A stretch of 64,000 nt of DNA, from assembly GCA_963843015.1 (NCBI GenBank), contig CAWJIR010000006.1:32763-96762 (forward strand), written 5' to 3'. This document shows positions 10,747-39,516 of this stretch, piece by piece. This DNA is from an uncultured Chloroflexia bacterium. GTDB taxonomy: Bacteria > Chloroflexota > Limnocylindria > QHBO01. Each line of letters begins with the position of its first letter. Positions within the stretch are counted from its first letter, which is position 1. The position numbers and the translations under genes are program-made. The notes under the pieces are model-generated. The model saw only the letters and a list, made by a program, of their open reading frames with translations. It did no database searches and had not been told where the DNA came from.

Positions 10747-12716
10747 CGCTCGACCACCACTCCGGCCTGCTGTCCGACCTGGCCGAGCACGTTGTCCTTG
10801 TAGCTCTCCAACAGGACCTTCCCGTCAGGGGTGAACCGCTCGAGCTCGAGCCGGTCCATGGTGATGCAGTTGGTGGGGCACCGTTCGACGCACAGGTTGC
10901 ATCGGATGCAGCGTTCCTCGTCGATGACCATCGCGATGCCCCGCGGCCACGCCTGGAACAGGTCAACCTCGGGGTCATCACCGCCCACCTGCGCCTTGTC
11001 GACCATGTAGATCACGCCCTCGGGGCAGACGTCAGCGCAGAGCCCGCACAGAATACAGCGGGGTCCGTCGATGTTGATGTTGTGGTTGCACTGGAGGCAG
11101 CGCGACCCTTCGGTGATGGCGCTCCGCGTGTCGTAGCCGATCTCGACCAGGCCGGTGAAGTCGCGCCGCATCTCGGGTGGGGCCATGGGAATGTGCTGAC
11201 GCGGGTATGCCTCGTAGAAGCGCGGCATGTCGTGGTCGAGGGCCTGGGTGATCGTTGCCCGGTTGATGACCGGCAGCTCGGCCAGCTCCTCGCCGCGGAC
11301 GCCGGACAGCCAGCGGTCGACCGCCCGCGCGGCGCGCCGGCCGAGACCCGCCGCCTCGATGATCGTGGCCGGGCCGGTGACGTAGTCCCCGACCGCGAAC
11401 ACGCCATCGACGGTCGAGGCGAAGGTGTTCCGATCGGTCACGATCTTGCCCCGCATCAGCTCGAACTCGAGCGCGTTCAGCTTCTTCCCGTCCGGCCCGA
11501 CGGGCGTCGAGCCGTTCAGCGGCTGGCTGCCCCAGGACGTGATCGAGCCGCCAGGCACGACCTCGCGGGTATCGGTCACGCCGATGTGGCGGTTCAGCGG
11601 CGACCCGTATTCGCCGAGGACGTTGTTGTCGGGGGACTGGCTGGTGCAGGGGATGACCATGTCGCACGGGATCACGAACTCGCTGCCGGGGATGGGCTCC
11701 GCCGTCCGGCGGCCGCTGGCGTCCGGAGGCCCAAGCTGCGTGCGCTGGAAGACCGCGCCCTTCACGTGGCCGGCCTCGTCGGCGAGGATCTCGACCGGCG
11801 CGGCGAAGTACTCGAAGCGCACGCCCTCGAACCGGGTCTCGTGCTGCTCCTCCTCGTCGACGACCATCTCCTCGGGGCCCCGGCGGTAGGCGACCACGCT
11901 GGTGGTGGCACCCAGCCGCAGCGCGGTGCGGCTGGAGTCCATGGCCGTGTAGCCGCCTCCGACGATCACGACGTGCTTGCCGACCCACTGTTCCTGGCCG
12001 AGGTTCGCGCGCTTCAGGAAGTCGACGCCGTAGATCACGCCATCGAGCTCCTCGCCGGGGACGTTCATGGCGACCGGGTACATGCAGCCGGTGGCGACCA
12101 CCACCGCGTCGTGCCGCGCCTGCAGCTCGTCCAGGGTCACGTCGCGGCCAACCTCGACGTTGTAGTGGAACTCGACCCCGTGCTTGGCCACCCAGTTGAC
12201 GTCGAGCTCGATGACGTCCCGCGGGAGCCGGAAGGCAGGCACGCCGATGAGGGTGGTTCCGCCCCCGGACGGCAGCGCATCGTAGACGTGGACCTCGTGC
12301 CCCCACCCGGCCAGCTCCTTGGCTGCGCTCAGGCCCGCCGGCCCGGCGCCGATCACGCCCACGCTCCGCCCGGTGGCGGGCGCAACCTGGATGTCGTCGG
12401 GCATGTTGTTGGCGTAGTGCCAGTCCACGAGGAACCGCTTCATGGCCCGGATGGCCAGTGGCTTGTCGATGTCCGCGCGGCGGCAGGCCTTCTCGCAGGG
12501 CGCGGAGCAGACGTAGCCGCAGATGGCGGCGACCGGGTTCGGGTCGCGGGCGAGGATGTAGCCCTCCTCGAAGCGGCCCTCGGCCGCGAGCATGAGATAG
12601 CCGCGGCAGTTGGTGTTGACCGGACACCCTTCCTGGCACTCGATGTTGCACTGGAGCCAGTCGACGCCGACCTCTGCGGTCTGGAAGCGCAGGGGCACCG
12701 CTTCCCGGGTCGTCAT
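10743..12716 (-). CDS. NAD(P)H-dependent flavo-iron-sulfur oxidoreductase (GltD/NfnB/DsrL-like) with C-terminal 2x[4Fe-4S] ferredoxin domain
   Basis: Intact 657 aa ORF; CNIECQEGCP, ICGYVCSAPCEKAC, GAGPAG (FAD), GGGYTAMD...YRR (NADP-type), GD..TGPATII.A, RCLQC, CILCGLCADVCP, CIRCNLCVERCP. Confidence 0.9.
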   Translation of the reverse strand: MTTREAVPLRFQTAEVGVDWLQCNIECQEGCPVNTNCRGYLMLAAEGRFEEGYILARDPNPVAAICGYVCSAPCEKACRRADIDKPLAIRAMKRFLVDWHYANNMPDDIQVAPATGRSVGVIGAGPAGLSAAKELAGWGHEVHVYDALPSGGGTTLIGVPAFRLPRDVIELDVNWVAKHGVEFHYNVEVGRDVTLDELQARHDAVVVATGCMYPVAMNVPGEELDGVIYGVDFLKRANLGQEQWVGKHVVIVGGGYTAMDSSRTALRLGATTSVVAYRRGPEEMVVDEEEQHETRFEGVRFEYFAAPVEILADEAGHVKGAVFQRTQLGPPDASGRRTAEPIPGSEFVIPCDMVIPCTSQSPDNNVLGEYGSPLNRHIGVTDTREVVPGGSITSWGSQPLNGSTPVGPDGKKLNALEFELMRGKIVTDRNTFASTVDGVFAVGDYVTGPATIIEAAGLGRRAARAVDRWLSGVRGEELAELPVINRATITQALDHDMPRFYEAYPRQHIPMAPPEMRRDFTGLVEIGYDTRSAITEGSRCLQCNHNINIDGPRCILCGLCADVCPEGVIYMVDKAQVGGDDPEVDLFQAWPRGIAMVIDEERCIRCNLCVERCPTNCITMDRLELERFTPDGKVLLESYKDNVLGQVGQQAGVVVER

Positions 12717-12818
12717 GGGCGTTCGCAGTTCATCGCGCGTCCCCTTTGGCTCCCCCAGCGATCGGCGTCAGATTCCTGCCGTGGACCGGCGTTTTCGAAG
12801 GCGAGTTTCGGCGATTCG

Positions 12819-12848
12819 ATGCTACCCGTCGCCCGCTCGCGGTGTCAA
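12819..12848 (-). promoter_or_regulatory. Sigma70-type promoter of the flavoprotein-Rieske/cyt b operon
   Basis: Minus-strand TTGACA-18 nt-TAGCAT, about 100 nt upstream of ATG 12716. Confidence 0.65.
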
Positions 12849-12887
12849 AGACGGACGAGCGTCAGGAAGCGGTCCGTCGGGCGTTCC

Positions 12888-14939
12888 TCAGCGGTTGAAG
12901 TAGGTCGCCATCACCCGGCGGACGAGGGGTGCGGCGTCGGAACCGCCGGTGCCCAGGTGGACGCGGGCGAGGAGCGTGGCAACCACGATCTCCGGGTTGG
13001 CGGCAGGCGCGAAACCTGGGAACAGGGCGTGGGGGTCGGGACCACCCGATTCGGCGGTTCCCGTCTTGCCGGCAACAGGGATCCCGAAGCCAGAAAAGGC
13101 GGGTGTCGCGGTCCCATACGAGTAGGTGGTCACCGCCTGGAGGGTGGTGACGAGGTAGTCGAGGTCGGCCCGCTCGATGGCGAACTGGTGGCGAACCCGC
13201 GGACGGGTGCGGTACAGGGCCTCGCCGTCGGGGCCGGTGGCGCTGGTCACGAGGCGCGGCGTCCACAGCGTCCCGCGGTTGGCGAAGGCGGCATAGGCCA
13301 TCGCCATCTGGAGCTGGGTGCCCTCGAACGAGCCCTGGCCGATGGCCAGCTGGACCTGGTCGAACGGCCCGAAGGGGATGTATTCGCCGGAGCCGCGGGG
13401 GTGGCCCTCGAACCACAGCGCGTCCGGGAGGACTCCCGGCGTCTCGTTGACCCATCCGATGCCGGTGAGCTGCCCGAAGCCGAAGTCGGCGAGGAGATCG
13501 GTCAGCGCATCGCGTGTCCTGCTCGTAGATGACCATCGACAGGGGCATGTAGGTCGTGTTGCAGCTGAACGCCATCGCTTCCTCGAGCGACACGAGCCCG
13601 GGCAGCTGGTGGAGCTCGAAGTTCACGAACTGCACGCCACCGAAGTCCCAGGTCGGCCGGCACGTCATGCGCGTCGCGGGCGTGGCCACGCCAGTCCACA
13701 GGGCCGCCGCGAGGGTGAACGGCTTGAATGAGGAGCCGGTCGGGTAGGCCGTCTCGAGCGCATGGTTCGCCATCTGGCTGTCGGTCGGGGCGGCGAGCGG
13801 TGCGCCGCCGTTGGTCGTTCCCAGGGTCATCGCGTTCGGGTTGAACGCCGGCGCCGAGGCCAGGGCCCAGACATCGCCGGTTCGCGGGTCCACGACCGCG
13901 GTCGCCGCCTCGGGATAGCCGGCGAGCGCGGCCTCGGCCGAGCGCTGGAGGTCGGGCTGGATGGTGAGGCGGACGTCCGCGGCGGGAACGAGCGGCCGCT
14001 CGACGACCGGTCGAGCGGGTCCCGCGCCGTGGGGATCCACGAGCAGGGTCAGGGCGGCCCGGCCGCGCAGGAGCCACTCGGCGCCGGCCTCGACCCCCCG
14101 GCGGCCGGCGACCTGGCCGGCCTGGTATCCGTCGACCACGGGACGAGCAGCGGCCTCCTCCTCCGTCAGCGGCGTCGCGTAGCCGATCGTCTGGCCGGCG
14201 AGCGCCTCCTGTGGGTAGACCCGCAGGCCGTCGGCGCGGTTCGTGGCCAGCACCGTGCCGTCGGCGGCGAGAATCTGGCCGCGGGCCGGGAGCGGTCCTT
14301 CCTCGAGCAGGAACGTGCCACCGGTCGCCCCGAGCTCGGGGAAGAGGAGCTCCGGGGTCCAGCGAACCTCCCAGCCGGCCGGCCCCTCGGTCAGCTCGAG
14401 GACCCGGTCGAGCACGATCTCGCTCGAAGAGCACGGAGTGGAACGTGAGCCGGACGGGGAAGGCGACGGCGGGGACTGGTCCGGCGACGATCCCGTGTGG
14501 ATCCGACCGGAGCCGGGGACCCGCTCGGCCGAGGCGCCGCGGTCGGGGCGGGAGACGCCGAGACCCCAGGCGGACGCGGCTCGGGCGATCGGGCAGTGGA
14601 CCGCGGGGAACCGATGGCGACGTCCATCCTGATCAGACCGATGGCATCCTCGAATGCCTCATGCAGGGCCACGAACCCGGCCCGCGTATACCGATCGCGG
14701 TCGGCCGCAGCCAGGACCTCGTACCGACGCGCGTGGTCGCCGATGCGCCACAGGGCGACAAATCGCTCGACCGCGGCGCGAGCCTCTCCCTGCGACGACG
14801 GCTCCGATGCCGCGGCGACCGGCGGTGGCAGGAGCGCCGTCAGACCGATGGCGAGAGCGAGCCCTCCGGCCAACAGCCGCCCGGTGCGGCCACCCGCGTG
14901 CAGTCCCGTCGAGCGTGGGTCGGTCGCGTCGATCGTCAG
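12888..14939 (-). CDS. Class B penicillin-binding transpeptidase with NTF2/MecA-like N-terminal domain, frameshifted
   Basis: SxxK (GSSFK), SxN (SCN), KTG (AGKTGTAE); RGQILAADG dimerisation-domain motif; N-terminal hydrophobic anchor; start 14873 (TTG) or 14939 (CTG). Confidence 0.85.
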
Positions 14940-17443
14940 CTCCCGCTTCCGACCACGATGACGTCAGGCGATACCCGCCCCGGCGTGTCCGCCGGGTCCG
15001 ACAGCCGGATGACCCGATGCCGTTCGCCGTGGAGATGGGCCTCCGCCCAGCCCAGCACGGCGTCGTCGTGGGTGAACAGGACGAGCTGCCGGTCGGAGGC
15101 CAGGGCGAGGAGCATGTCGAGGATCTCCCGCTCGCGCTCGTTGTCGGCCTGGGCCGTGACCTCGTCGAGGAGCAGCGGCGCCGTTTCGCCGGTGGTGACC
15201 AGGTGCTGGGCCATGGCCACCCGGAGCAGGAGGTAGATCTGCTCCCGCGTCCCGCCCGAGAGCAGGCGGGCCTGGCGCCAGGCGCCCGTGCTCCCCTCCT
15301 TGACCTCGATGGACAGGTCGGCGGGGTTGACGCCGGCGTCGACGTAGGCTCCGCCGCTGAGGACGGGCAGCCACTCCCGAATGGCGGCCGCCAGGATCGG
15401 CGCCAGGTCGCGGTGGACCTGGCGCTGGGCGGCCTCGAGCAGGCCGAGCGTCTCATCGATGACCTGCGCGAGCTCGGTCACCCGGGCGAGCCGCAGCTCG
15501 GCGGCTCCGGCGGCCTCCTCCGCGGACGCGACGTCGAGCAGGTCAGCCCGACGGACGTCCACCGCACCGGAAAGCATCGCCGCGGCCTCGCGACGTCGGT
15601 CCAGCTCGGCCGAGGCCGCGGCCTCGTCGATCTCGCTCGGGATCTGGACGTCGGGTCCGACGGCCGCTGAAAGTTGCAGGGCCACCTGCTCTGACCGCGC
15701 GGCGTCGCCGGCCAGGTCCTCGACGGCACGGCCGTTCAGCAGACCGGTCAGCTCCTCGAACTCCCGGATCGAGCGCTCCACCTCGGCGGTCATCGCGCCG
15801 CGTTCGCTCTGCCATTTCTGGAGCAGCTCGATCACGGCTGCCGGGGCAAGGTTCGGGTCTGGATCGGGGACCACCGCGGCCAGGGCCGCACGCAGCCCGC
15901 CTTCGGCCTGTGTCACGGCGCGAGACGCATCCGCCGCGAGGCGCTCCGCATCCCGCGCGGCGTCGAGTTCGCGTTGCAGCGCCGGCGCCCGGCCGGCGGC
16001 GACGGCCACCTCCGCTCGCTGGAGGCAGGCCGCTTCGTAGGCATCCGCGGCCGACGCGCGGGTCGTCCCCGGGGTCGACGCCGCACGCCAGCAGGGCGTC
16101 CGCGAGGGATGCCTGACCAGCCGCGACCCGCGCGGCGGCCTCGGTCAGGACGTCGGCCTGCGAGCGCGGCAGTCGGCGTTCGTCCGCCCGGGTCTTCCCG
16201 ACCACCGACCACGCGCCGAGGGCGATGGCCAGGAGCAAGGACGACAGCAGCGACCAGCGGCGCCCCGGCGACGAAGGCCAGCAGCCCCGTGATCGCCAGG
16301 ATGCCAGCGCCGACGAGTCCGCCGATCGACACCGACGCGGAGGGCCGCGGCCGTTCGGCCGGCACCTGAGCCGCTTCGTCCATCGCCCGCCTGGCTTCCT
16401 CGGCAAGCGCCAGCTCCTGGAGCGCGGCAAGGACGGCAGGGGCCGGACGGAGATCGCCGACCGGCTGGGCCGGCAGCGCGGCCAGGTCGGCGGCAATTTC
16501 GTGGACAGGGCGACTCGATCCGGCGGTCGCAGCCGGGCGGGCGCGCCAGGCGGCGAGGGCTGCAGCCACCACATCGGCCTGCTCGTCCCGATCCGCGAGC
16601 TGGGGCGGGGGGCTCGGATAGCGTTTCGCGAGCTCCGCCGCACGATCAGCTCTCCGCCGCGCGTCGCTCGCAGCCGACCGGGCGGTAGCCAGCCGAACCA
16701 CCGTCAGATCCCGCTCGGCCGCGGCAACGGCGCTGGCCGCGACTTCCGCTTCCGCCTGCGTGGCCAGGTACTCGTCGTGGCGTCGTCGGGCGTCGGCCAG
16801 TTCCGACTGCGCGGGCCGTGACGTCGCGCATCGCCGTCCGCAGCGGGCCCTTGGCGACCGCGGTGTCGGCACCGACCGCGTTGCGCCGGTAGTCGCGAAG
16901 CCGCTCGATGGCGCCGGCGGCGGTCGCATCGGTCCCGTGCGCCGCGGCCGCGCGCTGCATGTGCTCCTGAAGGGCGGCCGCGTTGTCGGCCACGGCCAGC
17001 ATCTCGCCCTGGCCGACCGCGAGAGTTGCCGCAAACGCGTCCCGGTCGAGGCCGAGCCAGATCGATGCGTCGGGCGTGCCGTCCGGCCGCGTGATCTCGG
17101 TCGAAACGTCGATCCCAAGGTCGATATCGGTCGCGCGGCAGGCGACCTTGCCCAAGAGGTCCTGGACGAGGTCGATCCGTCGATCACCGACATGCAGCCG
17201 TGCCTCGACTGCCCAGCGATCCCGGTCGTCCCACGGCCGGTGGCGATCCTCGACCGAGGAGGCTTCCTTCGTGGCGCTGCCGCGGCCGCGGCGCACGCCA
17301 GTGAGGGCCATCCGGATCGCGGCGTGCCAGGTGGTCTTGCCCGCCTCGTTCAGGCCGAAGATCACGTTCAGGCCAGGCCCGAGCTCCAGGCTCTCATCGC
17401 GCAGCGCCCCGAATGCGCGTGCGGTGACCCGCTCGATCCACAT
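14936..17443 (-). CDS. SbcC/Rad50-like coiled-coil ATPase (YhaN family), frameshifted
   Basis: MWIERV..FG.L, Walker A GLNEAGKTT, long Ala/Arg/Glu coiled coil, signature LLSGGTREQ, Walker B LLLDE, FTHD. Confidence 0.85.
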
Positions 17444-27538: not shown

Positions 27539-30376
27539 TTGGTTTCAGCGCCTTCCAGCGGATCCCGGCCCGACGCGCTCATCAGCGTGGCGCAGGCGGC
27601 TGCCCTGCTCGGCGTCCACCCGAACACGGTCCGAGCCTGGACCGAGAACGGCCGGCTTACCGCCTGGCGGATCAACCCCCGCGGTGATCGGCGCTATCGG
27701 CGGGCGGACGTGGAACGGCTGCTGGCCGAAGGGGCGGGCACGGCCGGGCTCGACAGCACGCCGACCGCGGGGACGCGGATCGCCGACACGGACGCGGAGG
27801 CCGCCGTCCTGACCCGAATCTCCCAGGGCACGGTGGATGCGGGCAGCGTGGCTGCCGTCTGCCGGGTCACGGTGGAGTCGCTCCGTACCGTCGAGGCCAT
27901 CGCCCGGGTCGCGGTGTACCTCGTGCGCGACGACCGGCTCGTGCTCGAGACCCACGCCGGGCACAGCGCACCTCCGCCGCCAACCCTGTCATGGCCCGCG
28001 GACGCTGACGACATCGCCCCCGATGGCAGCATCCGGCTGCCGTTGACCATCGGCCAGGAGCGCATCGGCGTGCTGCTGGCCGCCGATGACGTCGACGGCG
28101 CGTGGATTCGCAGCCGACGGCGGTTCATGACCGCGGCCGCCGCCACGGCCAGCGTGGCGCTCCGCCATGCCCGGACCATCGCCCGCGCCCGTCGCGAGCT
28201 GACGCGGGCCAGGGCCCTGGCCAGCGTCACCCGGGAGCTGACCGGGCAGCTGGAGCTCGGCGCGGTTCTGAGTGACATCGCCGATCGGACGCGCGGCCTG
28301 TTCGACGCCGACCGGGTGGGCCTGTGGATGATCAACGACGAGCGGGAGCATCCGTTCGACCTGGCCGCCGAGCGTGGGATCAGCCCCGCCTTCCAGGCGA
28401 TGGTCAGCCAGCTCACGTTCAACAGCCCCTCGCTCGGGACGCAGGCCGTCCGAGAGCGGCGGACGTTCGTGGCCCGCCACGCGGACACCGACCCGAGCGT
28501 CGGCGCGCTCCAGGCCGTCTACCGCGACGAGGGGGTCAAGACGGCATGCCTCGTGCCGCTGGTGAGCCACGACCGCGCGGTCGGCGTCATCGGCCTCTAC
28601 CACTCTCGCGACCGGGAATGGCCCGACGATGAGCTGGCCCTGGCCCAGGCCTTCGCCAACCAGGCCGCGGTGGCCATCAGCAACGCGCGCCTGTACCGCA
28701 ACACCGCCGAGCAGGCCGCGCGGATGCGGTCCATCCACGATCTGTCCGCCCGCCTGAACCGGCTGACCGATGTCCAGGCCATCGCCGACGCCATCGTGGC
28801 CGAGGCGAGCACCCTGGCCGCGTTCCACGACATCCGGATCTACACCGTCGACTGGGAGCACGGGACCTGCGAGCCGATCGCCTTCACCGACCGGCTGCTG
28901 GGGGACGGCGACTTCCGCGATCTGCTGCGGGTCGACATCGGTCCGGGCTCGTTCACCGGCTGGGTGGCCGCCAACGCGCAGCCCATCCTCAGCAACGACG
29001 CGCTGAACGACGAGCGGGGCCACACGATCGAGGGCACCGAGGAGATCGAGGAGTCGATGCTCGTCGTGCCGATGGTCTACGAGGGCCGATCGGTGGGCGT
29101 CATCGCCCTGTCGAAGCTGGGCGTGAACCAGTTCTCGACCGACGACCTGCAGACCATGATGATCTTCGCCGGCTACGCGGCCCAGGCCCTCGTCAACGCC
29201 CGCAGCTACCGACGGCTCGAGGAGCAGTCCAGCCAGCTCGCTCGCCAGCTCGAGTCGCAGCGGAAGCTGCTCGACGTCAGCACCCGGGTCACCGGCACGC
29301 TCGAGCACGAGGACGTCCTCGAGGTCGTGGCCGACGGCCTGAAGGCCGTGGTCTACGTACGACAACCTGTCCATCTATCGCGCGGACCTGGCGAAGCAGG
29401 TCCTCGTCCCGGTCCTGACCCGCGAGGAGCACGCCGAGGAGGTCGCCCGCTACATCATCCCGTTCGGGCGCGGGCTCATGGGCTGGGTGGTGGAGCACGC
29501 GCGAAGCGGTCCTCGCCAACGACGCCCTGGCCGACCCCCGGGCCGTGCAGATCCCCGGCACGCCCGCCGGACCAGGAGGCGCTGGTCGTCGTCCCCCTCA
29601 TCAGCGACGGCCAGGTCACCGGCATCCATGAACGTCGGCCGAATCGGCGGCGAGGACGTCTACTTCAGCGAGACCGATTTCGAGCTCGTCCAGCTGTTCG
29701 CCGCGCAGGCCGCGGTCGCGCTCCGCAACGCGGACGAGCACCACGCCATGAGCATGCGAGCGGAGACCGACGCCCTGACCGGCCTCGGCAACCACGGCGC
29801 GTTCCAGCGCGACCTGGCCACCGCGACCGAAGCGGCCGCCAGCGCCCCACCCGAGGCAGGTCAGCTCGGTCTGCTGATGATGGACCTCGACCGATTCAAG
29901 ACCTACAACGACCGCTTCGGCCATCCGGCCGGCGACGCGCTGCTCCACGCGGTGGGCGAGGCGCTGTACGCCGCCACCCGAAGCGACGACCGGGTGTACC
30001 GATACGGAGGCGACGAGTTCACGATCGTCCTGTCCGGGGTCGACCTGGCCGAGGCCCAGCGGGTGGCGGAGCGTGCCCGGCGGCTCGTGGCGGCGGTGTC
30101 GCTCGAGCGCGGAGCGGCGCCGGTCACGATCACGGTCGGCGTCGCCCTGTTCCCCGACCACGGGGCGACGAAGGATGCGCTCATCGCCGCGGCCGACGCC
30201 GCGATGTACGCCGGCAAGCAGGCGGGCGGGGACCGGGTCGTGGTCCCGGGCGAGGCCGACGCCGGCGGCCGCCGCGAAGCCGCCGAAGCCGCGCGACCGC
30301 GACACGGCCATCGTCCCCGACGGCGGCGGAGCGACGCGCCGAGCGACCCGCGAGCCCGAAGACCACCGCCGCCTGA
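27539..30376 (+). CDS. Diguanylate cyclase with N-terminal BldC/Xis-like HTH and four GAF domains, frameshifted
   Basis: GAGGA plus TTG start; SVAQAAALLGVHPNTVRAW..NGRL....NPRGDRRY; four GAF repeats ending AAVAL/ISNA; DALTGLGN, DLDRFKTYNDRFGHPAGD, RSDD (I-site), RYGGDEF; 3' end uncertain. Confidence 0.85.
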   Translation: MVSAPSSGSRPDALISVAQAAALLGVHPNTVRAWTENGRLTAWRINPRGDRRYRRADVERLLAEGAGTAGLDSTPTAGTRIADTDAEAAVLTRISQGTVDAGSVAAVCRVTVESLRTVEAIARVAVYLVRDDRLVLETHAGHSAPPPPTLSWPADADDIAPDGSIRLPLTIGQERIGVLLAADDVDGAWIRSRRRFMTAAAATASVALRHARTIARARRELTRARALASVTRELTGQLELGAVLSDIADRTRGLFDADRVGLWMINDEREHPFDLAAERGISPAFQAMVSQLTFNSPSLGTQAVRERRTFVARHADTDPSVGALQAVYRDEGVKTACLVPLVSHDRAVGVIGLYHSRDREWPDDELALAQAFANQAAVAISNARLYRNTAEQAARMRSIHDLSARLNRLTDVQAIADAIVAEASTLAAFHDIRIYTVDWEHGTCEPIAFTDRLLGDGDFRDLLRVDIGPGSFTGWVAANAQPILSNDALNDERGHTIEGTEEIEESMLVVPMVYEGRSVGVIALSKLGVNQFSTDDLQTMMIFAGYAAQALVNARSYRRLEEQSSQLARQLESQRKLLDVSTRVTGTLEHEDVLEVVADGLKAVVYVRQPVHLSRGPGEAGPRPGPDPRGARRGGRPLHHPVRARAHGLGGGARAKRSSPTTPWPTPGPCRSPARPPDQEALVVVPLISDGQVTGIHERRPNRRRGRLLQRDRFRARPAVRRAGRGRAPQRGRAPRHEHASGDRRPDRPRQPRRVPARPGHRDRSGRQRPTRGRSARSADDGPRPIQDLQRPLRPSGRRRAAPRGGRGAVRRHPKRRPGVPIRRRRVHDRPVRGRPGRGPAGGGACPAARGGGVARARSGAGHDHGRRRPVPRPRGDEGCAHRRGRRRDVRRQAGGRGPGRGPGRGRRRRPPRSRRSRATATRPSSPTAAERRAERPASPKTTAA

Positions 30377-30424
30377 CCTGCGTCCCGGGCGCGCCGCGGA
30401 CCGGATGCTATCCTCGCCTCCCCA

Positions 30425-31173
30425 ATGCGTGATCGACGCCGCGTCCCGCTGCGCGCTGCGCCGCGGACCGTCCTCCGCGGGCGCGGCGCGTGGTCCCTCC
30501 TTGCTCCTCGCTGGCCGTGGCGGCCGCGTGCGGCACCGTGACGCCATCGCCGTCGCCGAGCGCGTCCTGCCGCCGGCGACGCCCATCCCCACACCGACCC
30601 CGCTGCCCACCCCCGCTTCTCGAACGAGGACGATCCCGCGCTGTCGGCGCTCATCCCGGACGAGGTCACCGGCCTGGTGGTCGTGAAACCGCCGACTCAC
30701 CGAGTACGCGATCACCCCCGGTGACATCGGCCAGGCCGCGTACGGCGAGCTCGGGCGCGCGGTTCGAGACGCTCGTCATCGCCTTCATCCGCGACCCGCG
30801 GCTGAGCCTCTACGCGGTGCGGGTGGACGGCCCGCCGGTCCTGACCACGGACCTCGAGCCACACCTCGCCACCGCCGGCCGATACGTCGGCATCGCCGGC
30901 CTCGACCCGGAGCCGTGGGAGCTGACGGACGTGGCCGGCCACTGGGTCTGGGTCCGGCCGTCGGACAACGCGACCCTGCCCGGGACCCACGGTCTACACC
31001 TGGGCCGCGGACGACGTCGTGTTCCTCATGATCGGGGTCAACGACGAGCATCAACCGTGCCCTGCTCGCGCTGCTGCCCGGCGAGCCGCCGCCCACGCCG
31101 AGCCCGGCGCCGTCGACCAGCCCGGGCGCCAGCGCCAGCCGAGGAGCCATCGGCCAGCCCATCCGGCTCCTAG
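30425..31173 (+). CDS. Hypothetical lipoprotein with Pro/Ser/Thr-rich termini, frameshifted
   Basis: Basic N-terminus, lipobox-like LAVAAAC-G, PSPSP linker, globular middle region. Confidence 0.5.
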
Positions 31174-31184
31174 ACTGTCGGCGC

Positions 31185-32272
31185 GTGACGGACCGGCTGA
31201 CCGATGACGAGGACGCCGCTGGCCGACGACGATCGGCTGAGCGGCGACGACGTGAGACTCGACGACGAGCCGGCAGATGGCGCTGCAGCGGCTCCAGCCG
31301 GAAGCGGGACCGACTGGCCCGCCTGCTGTCGGTGATCACGATCCTCTACAGCCGTGGCGGCAGGGAGCAGGGCGTGGCGGTCGACGATATCGCCCGCCTG
31401 ACGGGGATGAACAAGCGGACCGTCTACCGCGACCTGAAGGCCCTCGAGGACGAGCTCGCGGTCCCGATCTTCCAGGCCGGGCGCGGCCGCTACGGCATCG
31501 AGCGGAAGTACTTCCTGCCGCCGCTCCAGCTGACCGTGCCGGAGGGCATCGTCCTGTTCCTCGCGTCGCGCCTCATCGCCCAGTGGTCCGACGAGTCGGA
31601 CCAGGCGGTCATCAGCGCGTTCACGAAGATCGCCTCCGAGCTGCCGCAGCCCATCGCCCGCCACGTGACGGCGACCATGCTCGCGGTCGGCGAGCAGGAC
31701 TCGAACGAGCCGTTCACCGCCATCTTCAACAGCGTCGCCCGCGGCTGGGCCGAGGGCCGGGTGGTCGAGATCACCTACGAGCCGGGGACGGGCGAGCCGC
31801 GGCAGACCCGGTTTCGGCCGTACTTGCTCGAGCCGTTCGCGGCGGGCCGGAGCATCTATCTCATCGGCCATGACGAGACCGCCGGCGCGATGCGGACCTA
31901 CAAGATCGAGCGCATCCGGCAGGCCGATCCTGACCATGGACCGATACGAGATCCCCGACGACTTCGACCCGGACCAGTTCCTCGCCAACTCGTGGGGCAT
32001 CTGGTCGTCGGACACCACGCCACCGGTCGACGTCCGGCTGCGCTTCGACGCCGGCGTCGCGCGACGCGTCCGCGAGACGATCTGGCACCGGTCGCAGGTG
32101 CTGACCGAGCTGCCCGACGGGCGCGCTCGAGCTGGCCGTCCGGGTGGCCGGGATCATCGAGATCCGGCCGTGGATCCTGTCGTGGGGCGACCAGGTCGAG
32201 GTCCTGGAGCCGCCGGAGCTGCGTGACGTGGTCGCGGCCGCCCTGCGGGGAGCGGCCGGCCGCTACGACTGA
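31185..32272 (+). CDS. HTH-WYL-WCX transcriptional regulator (YafY/PafBC/DriD-like), frameshifted
   Basis: RLARLL, IARLTGMNKRTVYRDLKALE, PPLQLT, YEP...RFRPYLL, YLIG, RTYKIERI, WILSWGDQVEVLEPPELR. Confidence 0.9.
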
Positions 32273-32972
32273 GGGTCGCCCAGCGGGAAGGCGCGAGGAG
32301 GAGGGCGAGGGTCGGGCGCGCGCGGGGCTCGGCCGGGCGTCACCGGCATCCGGAGCCACGCGTCGCCGGCCACGCCGGCGCGGTGGCGGGCGGACAGCCG
32401 CCGGCCGGAGAGCCCGTCGATGCCGAGCCGGGCCAGGGCCTCGGCCACCAGCGTCCCGTCGCCCACGTAGCCATGGCCGACCGTGATCCGATCGCCGGGC
32501 GCCAGGATCGCGCTCAGCCAGTCGCGTCGGATCCGGAAGGTGCGCTTCAGGACCGATTCCCCACCGGCCCACAGCAGGTCGGCGGCGACGTACGCCGCCC
32601 GGCCGGCGCCGGGCGCACCGCCGCTCAGCCTGGCCCGCAGCAGATCGGCATCGGGCCGGCCCTCGGCGTCGAGCACGAGCAGGGTCCCGTCGAGCGGCCA
32701 CGCCGTCCTCGGCCAGCTGGCCGGAAAGCTCGAGCCAGCTCGGGGAACGCAGCGCCGGCATCGGCCAGGCCCGCGACCTGGAGCCGGACGCGGCCGCGCT
32801 CGGCGAAGGCCACCGCCCGAGCGCCCGGCCACCACGGCTCGAACAGGTAGTCGGGGTCGTCGAAGGGCGCGTCGGCGTCCGCCGGCTGCATGGGCGCGAT
32901 CCGATCCGGCAGCCGGACCGGCGGGGCGTCGGTCGGCGCGGTGGCGGGGAGGGGGAGCTGCTCGGGCGGCAC
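32263..32972 (-). CDS. LigD-like ATP-dependent ligase adenylation domain with degenerate catalytic motifs, frameshifted
   Basis: PMQP...PFDDPDYLFEPWWPGARA, LDGTLLV, AADLLW, IDGLSGRR, AWLR; no OB-fold domain. Confidence 0.75.
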
Positions 32973-32980
32973 GCGGCCGC

Positions 32981-33890
32981 TCAGGCGGTCTTGCGCCGCC
33001 GGGTCTGGGGAGCTTCCTCAGCCTCGGCCGACTTCTTCGCCCGGCTCCGCCGGGCGGGCGTCGGCGTGGACTCTTCAGCTCGCATCGGCCCCTGCCGCCG
33101 CGTCGCGTCGCGCCTCGCGGGCAGCAGCCACGCTCGCTTCGAGGGCGGCCATCAGGTCGCCGATCTTGGTCGGCTCGGTGGCCGCGATCGGCGTCGGCTC
33201 CTCGCCGGCGACCTTGGCCTCGATGACGCCCATCAGCGCCTGGCGGTAGTCGTCACGGAACTCCTCGGCGTCGAACTCGCCGGTCATGGAGGCGATGAGC
33301 TGCTCGGCCATCTTCCGCTCCGAGGGCTTGATCTCGATCCCGCTGCTGTCCACCGCCAGCTCCTCGACCGACCGGATCTCGTCGGGCCAGTGGAGGGTGG
33401 TGAGGAGCATCGACTCGGAGTACGGGTTGATCGCGGCCAGCTGCTCGCGATCCTTCATGACCACCTTGCAGATCGCGGTCTTGCCTTCGTCGGCCAGGAC
33501 CTGGCGGAGCAGGAAGAACGCCTTCTTGCCGACCGGGTCGGGCTCGAGGTAGTAGGCGCTCTTCACGAACTCGGCGCCGTGGGCCTCCTTGTCGGCGTCC
33601 ACGAACATCGCGATCTCGATGGAGCGGACCGTCTTCAGCGGCACGGCCTCGAGGTCGTCGTCGGTGACGACCACGTACCGGCCCTTGCTCCACTCGTAGC
33701 CCCGAACGGTCTCGGAGCGCGGGACGACCTCGTCGTGGAACGGGCAGTAGATCTTCATCTGGATCCGGTTCAGGCAGCTGGCGTGCAGCATGTTGAAGCC
33801 GATCCCGCTCGACTCGGTCGCGAGGTAGAGCTTGACGGGGATGGTCACCAGCCCGAACTGGATGGCCCCCCGCCACATCGCGCGTGCCAT
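32981..33890 (-). CDS. ku: Ku protein (NHEJ); basic C-terminal tail in another frame
   Basis: MWRGAIQFGLVTIPVKLY, RGYEW, YYLEP, TLHWPDEIR, FRDDYR, DLMAALEAS; tail AKKSAEAEEAPQTRRRKTA* ends at 32981 (called ORF stops at 33075). Confidence 0.95.
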
Positions 33891-37731: not shown

Positions 37732-39457
37732 CTACTCGTCTTCCAGCTTCCCGGTGGCCGCGATCCGCGCCTCGCGACCGCCGCGGCCGGTGGCGAGCAG
37801 GATGCGCCCGCTGGCCTGGGCCTCGAACAGGCCCTCCACGGTCGCGAGGTTGTCGATATCGGCCGGGGTCTTGTCGTCGCGGATCCGCACGATCCGCGGG
37901 AATCGGAGGGCGAACCCGCTCCCGTGGCGCCCGCTGCGCATGATCCGGTCGAACGCGATCTCGACCACGACCTCGGGAACGACACTCCTGAACCGGCCGA
38001 AGTCGCGCACGGTCGTCCGCTGGAAGTGCTCGGTGAAGGCGGCGATCTCGGCATCGGTCAGACCGGTGTAGGCCTTGCCGATGACCTCCAGCGAGTCGCC
38101 GTCCGGTCCGCGCACCGCGAAGGTGTAGTCCGACAGCACGCCACGGCGCTTGCCATGGCCCCACTCCACGCCGACCACCACGCAGTCGAGGGTGGCGAGC
38201 GCCTTCTTCAGCTTCAGCCAGCCCAGGCCGCGGCGCCCGGGTTGGTAGACCGATGCCGGGTCCTTGACCATCAGCCCCTCGTTGTGCCGGTCGCGGGCCT
38301 CGTCGAATCGGGCATCCACCTCGTCGGCCGAGCGAGCCCGATCCAGCCGGGCGTAGAGGAACCGGGCATCGGTCCGATCGGGCAGCGCGAGGCGTTCAAG
38401 CGCCGTCCGGCGGTCTCGAAGCGGATGCTCGAGCAGGTCCTCGCCGTCAAGGTGGAGCAGGTCGAAGGCGACGAGCACGACCGGGACCTTCTCGAGCAGC
38501 GCGGATCGGGACGGACGCGCCCGAGCCGGGTCTGGAGGGCCGCGAAGTCGAGGACCACGCCCTCCCGGAAGGGCACCAGCTCGCCGTCGAGCAGGAGGGC
38601 ATGGTCGAGGCCGGCCGTGGCGGCGGCCACCTCCGGGAACGAGACGGTGATGTCCTTCAGGTCTCGGCTGAACAGGCGCGCCCGTCCCTCCGTGCAGGTG
38701 GAGCTGGGCGCGGATGCCGTCGTACTTGTCCTCGATCCAGGCCTCGTCGCCCACCCGACGCATGACCTCGTCCGCGTCACCGACCGGCGTGGCGAGCATG
38801 GGCCGGATCGGTCGTCCGAGGTGGAGGGTTGCCTGGTCGAGTGTCCCGCGGCGAGCCATGGCGGCCGCTTCGCCGGGCTCGCCGAGGAGCATGAGCGCGC
38901 GACGGACCGAATCCTGTGGAGCATCGAAGGCGGCCGCGATCGCCTCCTCCAGCAGCCCCTCGCGCAGGCCGATGCGCAGCTCGCGGGCCGCGATCCGAGC
39001 CACGTACCGGGCCTCGGCCGGCGTCGCTCGCCGAAACAGGTCGGCCATGAGCCCAACCCGGTCGTCGGCGCTCGGGGCAGCGGCCATCGCTCGATAGCCG
39101 GCGGCCACGTCGGCGACGGTCAATGGATCGGCCGACGGCTGCTGACCGGCGAGGAGGTCGGCGGCGACGTCCCCGAAGTCCGAGTGACGGAGCCACGCGG
39201 CCGACAGCGCGGCGTCATCGGCGCCGCTGGCCGCGGCGAGGGCCGCCGCCTGCTGGACCCAGCCGAGCCCCAGCCGGTCGGCGGCACCGGGGAGTGGGGA
39301 CCCGGCCAGGAACGTGGCCGCCAACGGCAGGTCCGCGGCAGGCAGCTGCGCGCAGGTAGGTCGCCAGCCGGTCGCGCTTGGCGATCTTGGAACGCGTCGC
39401 CCCGATGTCGTCGGCGGTCGACGCGAACGCCGCGAAGGGCGAGCTGCGGGGAGGCAT
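37732..39457 (-). CDS. ligB: ATP-dependent DNA ligase (LigB type), frameshifted
   Basis: Motif I EDKYDG, III LDGEL, IIIa FDLL, IV EGLMVK, V WLKLK, OB fold GKAYTGLTD, ALRFPRIVRIRDDK. Confidence 0.92.
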
Positions 39458-39516
39458 GGCTGGAGTCTATGCGCCCGCTTGACGGGCGCCATCGGTCCCG
39501 CCACGCTTGCTCGCGC

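Follow-up and report, generated by a model that had tools for sequence, protein, structure and literature searches.

What can a DNA ligase domain that has lost its catalytic motifs do directly downstream of a gene for Ku? Bacterial nonhomologous end joining (NHEJ) is taught as a two-protein pathway composed of Ku and LigD, and the question is raised by a ligase-like pseudo-ligase gene, here called pLig, that lies directly 3′ of ku in an uncultured Chloroflexia bacterium (Limnocylindria; QHBO01). The locus was analyzed within a stretch of 64,000 nucleotides (the window), positions 32,763 to 96,762 of contig C6 (CAWJIR010000006.1) of the assembly GCA_963843015.1. This metagenome-assembled genome (MAG) has 1.93 Mb in 13 contigs, is 64% complete and contains about 72% G+C. 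As far as sequence comparison can tell, pLig is a LigD-type ligase domain turned pseudoenzyme, of which the window adds one more, noisy copy. The reading that we favor, with a probability of about 0.6, is that pLig descends from a stand-alone NHEJ ligase linked to Ku, has lost both catalysis and the OB domain, and is retained as a protein that works with Ku, without enzyme activity of its own, in the repair of double-strand breaks. The two genes and the spacer that separates them are as follows.

32981–33890, reverse strand: ku, recognized by TIGR02772 and PF02735 profile matches, with the tail located by tblastn and the extra base by DNA alignment.
32973–32980, reverse strand: spacer of 8 nt from the ku stop to the GTG start of pLig, TGA GCGGCCGC GTG.
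32263–32972, reverse strand: pLig, a LigD-type nucleotidyltransferase (NTase) domain only, from the GTG at 32972 to the TAG at 32265–32263, defined by profile matches, alignment, AlphaFold2 (AF2) modeling and Foldseek.

The pLig protein has 234/235 amino acids once five 1-nt insertions are removed; as assembled, the gene occupies three frames. It matched the profiles NF007210 (E 3e-24, model positions 470–657 of 781; 85.3 bits, cut-off 989) and TIGR02779 (E 2e-18, model positions 2–182 of 302; 66.9 bits, cut-off 227.75), and reached 18–22 bits with PF01068, under the cut-off of 26.2. The curated cut-offs of these three ligase families were not reached. Among 5.8 billion proteins searched, 944 matched; the best 120 are 203–239 amino acids long and 64–89% identical. 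The column counts given below refer to 119 of these best 120 homologues, all at least 64% identical. The motifs were aligned residue by residue with the ligase domain (LigDom) of M. tuberculosis LigD (1VS0/6NHX), and the following remnants were located.

32817–32843, reverse strand: motif I remnant FEPWWPGAR (versus FExKWDGxR), by direct reading and alignment to 1VS0.
32683–32694, reverse strand: motif III remnant LDGT, Glu replaced by Thr, by alignment.
32569–32592, reverse strand: motif IIIa remnant YVAADLLW, the adenine-stacking Phe replaced by Ala, by alignment.
32398–32424, reverse strand: motif IV remnant GIDGLSGRR, Lys replaced by Arg, by alignment.
32344–32361, reverse strand: motif V remnant AWLRMP, both Lys replaced, by alignment.

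The initial annotation, made from the window sequence, had described a loss at each of these motifs, and the alignment to the two structures bears this out. In motif I, FEGKWDGYR became FEPWWPGAR, with the adenylated Lys changed to Trp and the Asp to Pro; LDGE became LDGT in motif III, FWAFDLL became YVAADLL in motif IIIa, EGVIAK became DGLSGR in motif IV and WVK became WLRMP in motif V. These replacements are not peculiar to the window. The motif I residues Phe, Glu, the second Trp, the second Pro, Gly and Arg are found in all 119 homologues, the first Pro in 118 and the first Trp in 117. Motif III has Thr in 112 of the 119, the motif IV Arg (R190) is present in every one of them, and motif V is conserved as AWLR(A/M)P. 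The search for FEPWWPG across genomes that had been suggested showed FEPWWPGxR in 117 of the 119 homologues, and close orthologues with an intact KxDG motif, which would have spoken for decay in a single lineage, were not found among them. No alignment column conserves a lysine and 86 of the 119 proteins have none at all, so a relocated nucleophile is not apparent; the window copy has a single lysine, K142. The OB, Pol and PE domains are absent, as had also been noted: the protein ends about 25 residues past motif V, and PF04679 has no match.

The loss of catalytic residues is accompanied by retention of the fold. An AF2 model built on a 37-sequence alignment had a predicted local distance difference test score (pLDDT) of 45; with a 136-sequence alignment the pLDDT was 90.4 and the predicted TM-score (pTM) 0.82. 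The sole neighbors of this model in Foldseek were the NTase domains of ATP-dependent DNA ligases, with TMq values of 0.64–0.68 for 6NHX and 1VS0 (28–31% identity) and of about 0.71 for archaeal ligases. A set of pocket-lining residues (E45, R52, D94, G95, D131, R190 and R207) is kept invariant or nearly so. The isoelectric point (pI) is about 5.1 for pLig and about 5.7 for LigD LigDom, a value that does not tell DNA binding from protein binding. Judged from the alignment and the model, pLig is a folded ligase NTase domain unable to use the known lysine-adenylate chemistry.

The comparison of orthologues indicated that this dead domain is maintained. The ratio dN/dS (omega), which had been proposed as a check, shows purifying selection: it is about 0.16 in the core, about 0.16 in the C-terminal tail and 0.07–0.25 in close pairs. 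Of 17 same-genus genomes, 16 encode pLig as an uninterrupted open reading frame (ORF), and the same holds for nearly all members of the family (f1, the window's own Limnocylindria family). When the whole class is considered, 207 of its 301 genomes match at E ≤ 1e-30. In a library of representatives clustered at 50% identity, this threshold is reached by 42 clusters, and about 45 representatives have FEPWWPG. With the dead motifs fixed, the orthologues intact and omega near 0.16, the earlier view of a retained pseudo-ligase, rather than a gene in decay, stands.

The window copy itself is damaged in a different way. DNA alignment of the window with two intact orthologues mapped six 1-nt insertions in the ku–pLig region, one in ku (near 33078) and five in pLig (near 32736, 32695, 32337, 32295 and 32287). 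The statement that the motif changes are substitutions and not indel noise is correct for the motifs, which are truly substituted; it did not take into account that the same gene is also hit by the five insertions. Between 24000 and 40000 of the window (for example at 27539–30686, 31185–32266 and 37732–39504), nearly all genes are broken across two or three frames relative to G016, the same-genus genome used as the orthologue reference. Where the alignment was done at the DNA level, the differences in the window are 1-nt insertions of G or C throughout. Because nearly every neighboring gene is broken like pLig with respect to its G016 orthologue, the frameshifts are read as assembly noise. They look like consensus errors of a long-read assembly, which probably explain the 64% completeness of a MAG of 13 contigs.

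After frame correction, the neighboring gene encodes a complete Ku. The ORF at 33075–33890 (reverse strand) matches TIGR02772 with 270 bits (cut-off 150) and PF02735 with E 4e-41, and the insertion near 33078 introduces a premature TGA into ku as assembled. The basic C-terminal tail (...PTPARRSRAKKSAEAEEAPQTRRRKTA) runs on in another frame to the TGA at 32983–32981; tblastn with the G016 Ku found it in frame −1 at 33118–32984. Both the beta-barrel core, above cut-off, and the basic C-terminal extension are therefore present in the corrected protein. The gap of 8 nt that had been reported after the reconstructed stop is real: the stop is the TGA at 32983–32981, the pLig GTG lies at 32972, and the junction string TGAGCGGCCGCGTG is identical in relatives. 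Among 20 orthologous loci, 17 have this spacing to the nucleotide, and the remaining three have gaps of 9, 16 and 17 nt.

Linkage to ku, another of the proposed checks, was found to extend beyond the window. In all 20 family f1 loci that cover the region downstream of ku, pLig directly follows it on the same strand. The linkage is also seen in G028, which belongs to another family and has the order Ku, pLig and full PE-Lig-Pol LigD, and in two divergent members (46% and 42% identical) that lie in unrelated neighborhoods; in one of these two the ku stop overlaps the pLig start by 4 nt. The tight spacing or overlap suggests that pLig is co-translated with Ku.

The relatives of pLig offer a plausible view of its origin. 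In FastTree and quick IQ-TREE phylogenies, the FEPWWPG clade is monophyletic (support 99–100) and lies within a superclade that is wholly Lys-less (support 94–96). One other member of this superclade has about 350 amino acids and keeps the OB domain; one of its proteins is named Candidatus Dormibacteria. In the loci L037 (Candidatus Dormibacteria) and L038 (a forest-soil contig), the order is LigD(PE-Lig-Pol), a hypothetical gene, an HNH endonuclease gene, Ku and a Lys-less NTase+OB gene of 358–365 amino acids, which ku overlaps by 1 nt. The HNH gene within this Dormibacteria-type NHEJ operon, present in both loci, is recorded as a side observation. A second member, FEPxWGG, has about 245 amino acids, lacks the OB domain and keeps DGE and FDLL. 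Its genes (L018–L022; genomes G038, G036, G034, G030 and G026) adjoin those for an ABC transporter, polyphosphate kinase, S9 peptidase or ammonium transporter, and not ku.

In the sister family f2, the gene directly after ku encodes a ligase of about 350 amino acids with FEVKWDGIR, LDGE, FDLLY, EGxVAK, WLKCH and an OB domain (loci L040, L043, L044 and L045, in G029, G049, G031 and G039, respectively). It is the apparently active counterpart of pLig. The two resemble each other in their slot after ku, in the type of C-terminal tail (RPRLxVLxSLPF in f2) and in their superclade grouping, whereas the f2 protein keeps the catalytic Lys, most motif residues and the OB domain, which pLig lacks, and the identity between them is 33–38%. 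The f2 ligase groups with the Lys-less superclade, apart from canonical LigD, on a short branch (SH-aLRT 93 in the quick IQ-TREE run). Both f2 genomes examined for it, G029 and G039, have a full LigD on the same contig. A published name for this ku-adjacent ligase was not found. The origin of pLig may then be sketched as follows. A ku-linked stand-alone ligase with terminal docking peptides would have become catalytically inactive in lineages where LigD is present as well; Limnocylindria would then have lost the OB domain too, while the position, the fold and the peptides were kept. Loss of catalysis, followed by loss of the OB domain in Limnocylindria, would be the simplest history, and the order of the losses is provisional because both trees are quick and unrooted.

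Proteins without the motif I lysine were also seen elsewhere. The metagenome cluster representatives P0144, P0154, P0157, P0163, P0168, P0170, P0184, P0187, P0188, P0192, P0195, P0256 and P0270 are LigD/LigC-like, have 330–400 amino acids, have lost the motif I Lys (FEVLWDG, FEVRWDG, FEPAWDG, FEVNWAG and others) and keep the OB domain; several have similar terminal peptides. Lys-less ligase paralogues may be far more widespread than the Ku-linked clade.

A canonical LigD is encoded elsewhere in the same-genus genomes. It has 880–916 amino acids and the architecture PE-Lig-Pol, and its motifs KWDG, DGE, FDL, EGVVAK and WVKIK are intact. The idea that pLig replaces a missing LigD was rejected on the basis of these full three-domain proteins. 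An orthologue of the same-genus LigD was not found in the source MAG, which is 64% complete. Contig C3 of this MAG has a Pol-domain-like stretch at about 12200–13200 (forward strand; 28–41% identical to LigD PolDom) and a ligase-NTase-like stretch at 16480–17180 (reverse strand; 28–30% identical).

Outside its folded core, pLig has two short terminal segments.

32946–32963, reverse strand: N-terminal EQLPLP, residues 4–9, with the QLxLP motif, in a variable, low-confidence segment.
32266–32336, reverse strand: C-terminal tail, PAEPRARPTLALLLRLPLGDPQ in relatives; the window copy is garbled by three 1-nt insertions.

In the N-terminal segment, Q5, L6 and L8 are invariant in alignment A1, QLxLP is found in 81–90 of 97 full-length members and the sixth position is variable. 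The pLDDT of this region is about 65. The first 27 residues have an omega of 0.40 and a G+C content of 0.84 at third codon positions (GC3) against 0.57 at second positions (GC2), a coding signature that supports the GTG start. At the other end, the tail RPTLAL(I/L)LRLPL is nearly invariant among homologues; its pLDDT is about 68, yet its omega equals that of the core. From low pLDDT combined with constraint in the terminal peptides we infer the signature of short docking motifs. The C-terminal peptide is RPTLALILRLPLG in the FEPWWPG clade, RPVLALIQRLPLD in the FEPxWGG clade, RPRLIVLQSLPFP in the active-looking f2 ligase and FAPTVIPNLPLL in the OB-retaining Lys-less clade, and most forms have an N-terminal peptide of alternating hydrophobic residues (hydrophobic-x-hydrophobic-x-hydrophobic), such as QLPLPV, DQLSLSL, LPLDLP or TLIDV.

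The pLig tail, PxLALIQRLPL, resembles the extreme C-terminus of LigD. LigD proteins that terminate in the PolDom end in GDLFAxVLxLxQxLP, for example GDLFAPVLSLVQALP and ...LTLRQELPPLG; such ends were seen in L032 (4180–6930), L034 (3234–5882) and L023, and in P0153, P0176, P0218 and P0251. The pattern is rare, being present at 2 of 11,383 ORF C-termini in the source genome. This likeness is a lead that pLig and LigD may dock on the same partner, nothing more.

Among known proteins, pLig is closest to LigD. Like the LigDom of M. tuberculosis LigD (Rv0938, about 450–759; 1VS0, 6NHX, 6NHZ), it has the NTase fold, motifs I to V in the same order and an association with ku. It differs in having no adenylation Lys, substitutions in every one of these motifs, no OB, Pol or PE domain, and additional conserved peptides at both termini. 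The C-terminal arm of M. tuberculosis Ku contacts D522, K579 and L580 of LigD, all in the NTase half (PMC13717202). These residues align with E88 (invariant), D150 (variable) and W151 (invariant) of pLig, and a retained surface for binding the Ku arm is plausible. Stand-alone ATP-dependent ligases of the LigC/LigD type from Actinobacteria and Agrobacterium are likewise small, devoid of Pol and PE domains and located beside NHEJ genes (PMC1920237; PMC5124664). They are active enzymes with KxDG and an OB domain, whereas pLig has neither. The non-enzymatic proteins XRCC4, XLF and PAXX work in NHEJ together with Ku and the ligase, partly through short terminal Ku-binding peptides. Their likeness to pLig is a functional analogy only, with no relationship in sequence or fold, the Foldseek matches of pLig being all ligase NTase domains. 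No account of a DNA pseudo-ligase, or of an inactive ligase that works with bacterial Ku, was found in full-text literature searches.

Taken together, the NTase fold, the fixed dead motifs, the purifying selection, the adjacency to ku and the coexisting LigD and LigB-type ligases are the reasons to regard pLig as a non-enzymatic partner of Ku. The folded domain would keep the surface that the ligase domain of LigD uses to contact the C-terminal arm of Ku, and the N-terminal QLxLP and C-terminal PxLALIxRLPL peptides would act as docking motifs. In such an arrangement pLig would be a scaffold or gatekeeper at ends bound by Ku, organizing or timing the access of LigD and LigB and sealing nothing itself. 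Recruitment of another ligase such as LigB, which the initial annotation had put forward, may be one option only, as a same-genus LigD also exists, and pLig may either help ligation or gate it. Several points weigh against a partnership with Ku. Everything beyond dead, conserved and ku-linked is deduced from synteny and homology. Ku can persist without pLig: in G062, a family f1 genome that is 95% complete, ku converges on the WYL gene with no room for pLig (L046, G062:C77:29500–35500), an apparent secondary loss. The apparent absence of pLig from another genome, G291, is due to a contig end just after ku. The FEPxWGG clade, which is Lys-less and bears the tail, is not ku-linked, and the tail and the fold are consequently not exclusive to Ku. 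Last, of the three contact positions mapped in M. tuberculosis, just one has a chemically similar residue in pLig.

A more elaborate scheme, which is possible but tentative, would make NHEJ a three-part process in Limnocylindria, Dormibacteria and perhaps other lineages with Lys-less genes. The pLig subunit would dock on Ku-bound ends by means of an LxLxQxLP-type peptide that it has in common with the LigD C-terminus, and the N-terminal QLxLP, possibly placed on the clamp, would organize the choice of ligase and polymerase.

The same evidence can be read in other ways. Foremost among these, and in our view unlikely, is that pLig is a gatekeeper or inhibitor that takes the place on Ku where ligases dock, or the 5′ end of the DNA, and blocks LigD or LigB until a signal releases it; pLig would in that case behave like a built-in dominant-negative ligase domain. 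Catalytically dead enzyme fragments are commonly competitors, pLig retains the LigD region in contact with the C-terminus of Ku, the tight coupling to ku suggests that it is produced alongside Ku, and active ligases are encoded elsewhere. However, an inhibitor made at all times together with its target would have to be released somehow, and no such mechanism is visible; the Dormibacteria operon that includes LigD fits cooperation equally well.

It is rather doubtful that pLig serves as an adaptor to the beta sliding clamp, with QLxLP(V/A/L) as an Hda-type motif that would tether Ku-bound ends, or pLig itself, to DnaN. The invariance of Q5, L6 and L8 within an otherwise variable, low-pLDDT and yet translated N-terminus is what would be expected of such a motif, and QLSLPL, the peptide of Hda, binds the clamp tightly, the consensus being QL[S/D]LF (PMC12309361). 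Against this, the likeness is a pattern match only, and the motif frequently finishes with Pro, Ala, Thr or Gly instead of a large hydrophobic residue. In addition, the corresponding segment reads TLIDV in f2 ligases, where the Gln is absent, and PLDLS in the linkers of LigD; it may thus have been inherited as a linker.

Still less probable is a repurposed pocket that would bind a nucleotide, a 5′-phosphate or 5′-adenylated DNA end or a flipped base non-covalently, making pLig an end sensor or end protector. Isolated ligase NTase domains contact the 5′-phosphate of the nick, and the (nearly) invariant pocket residues E45 to R207 listed above lie beside W47 and W48; in motifs IV and V, positive charge is preserved where Arg replaces Lys. 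But pLig no longer has the Phe that stacks on adenine, the Glu that contacts the ribose or the Asp of motif I, its overall pI is about 5.1 and the DNA-clamping OB domain is gone. The notion that pLig is a decaying pseudogene, in the lineage or in this genome only, finds its support in the split of the window copy over three frames and the premature stop in ku, and it was rejected as highly improbable, since all six indels are 1-nt insertions, indels run throughout the compared part of the window (positions of about 24–40 kb), nearly every neighboring gene shows the same kind of damage against its G016 orthologue, the MAG has 13 contigs but only 64% completeness, and the orthologues are intact with omega near 0.16.

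If pLig is indeed a non-enzymatic partner of Ku, it would be a third, non-catalytic component of bacterial NHEJ, echoing the eukaryotic scaffold factors. The series from an active ligase (f2) through a Lys-less form with OB domain (Dormibacteria) to the OB-less pLig would be a natural one in which to study the origin of a pseudoenzyme. There is also a practical side. The homologues of pLig are labeled "bifunctional NHEJ protein LigD" by JGI and hypothetical by NCBI, and a comparative NHEJ survey scores genomes by the presence of domains, disregarding catalytic residues; given the JGI labels, surveys that count LIG domains will mis-score the NHEJ capacity of these soil and freshwater lineages. 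A reading of the locus as anti-phage defense was rejected after PADLOC returned no defense-model match for pLig, Ku or the Dormibacteria form.

Two further genes of the window belong to the usual setting of pLig.

37732–39504, reverse strand: LigB-type three-domain ATP-dependent DNA ligase with KYDG present, from the ORF list and orthologue domains.
31185–32266, forward strand: HTH-WYL-WCX (PafBC-like) regulator, from Pfam WYL and WCX matches on orthologues; frameshifted as assembled.

The usual order in the window's lineage is LigB (three-domain, 574 amino acids), DUF6812, a hypothetical gene, OsmC, Ku, pLig and the convergent HTH-WYL-WCX gene. The nearby LigB had been described as intact; this is true of the orthologues, which have 574–576 amino acids and the domains PF04675, PF01068 and PF04679, and not of the window copy, which has compensating frameshifts. 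The regulator gene is convergent with pLig, their 3′ ends abutting or overlapping by a few bases, and a link to DNA-damage regulation is possible. Its placement is kept in all same-genus loci, and in other genera it is found within about 4 kb.

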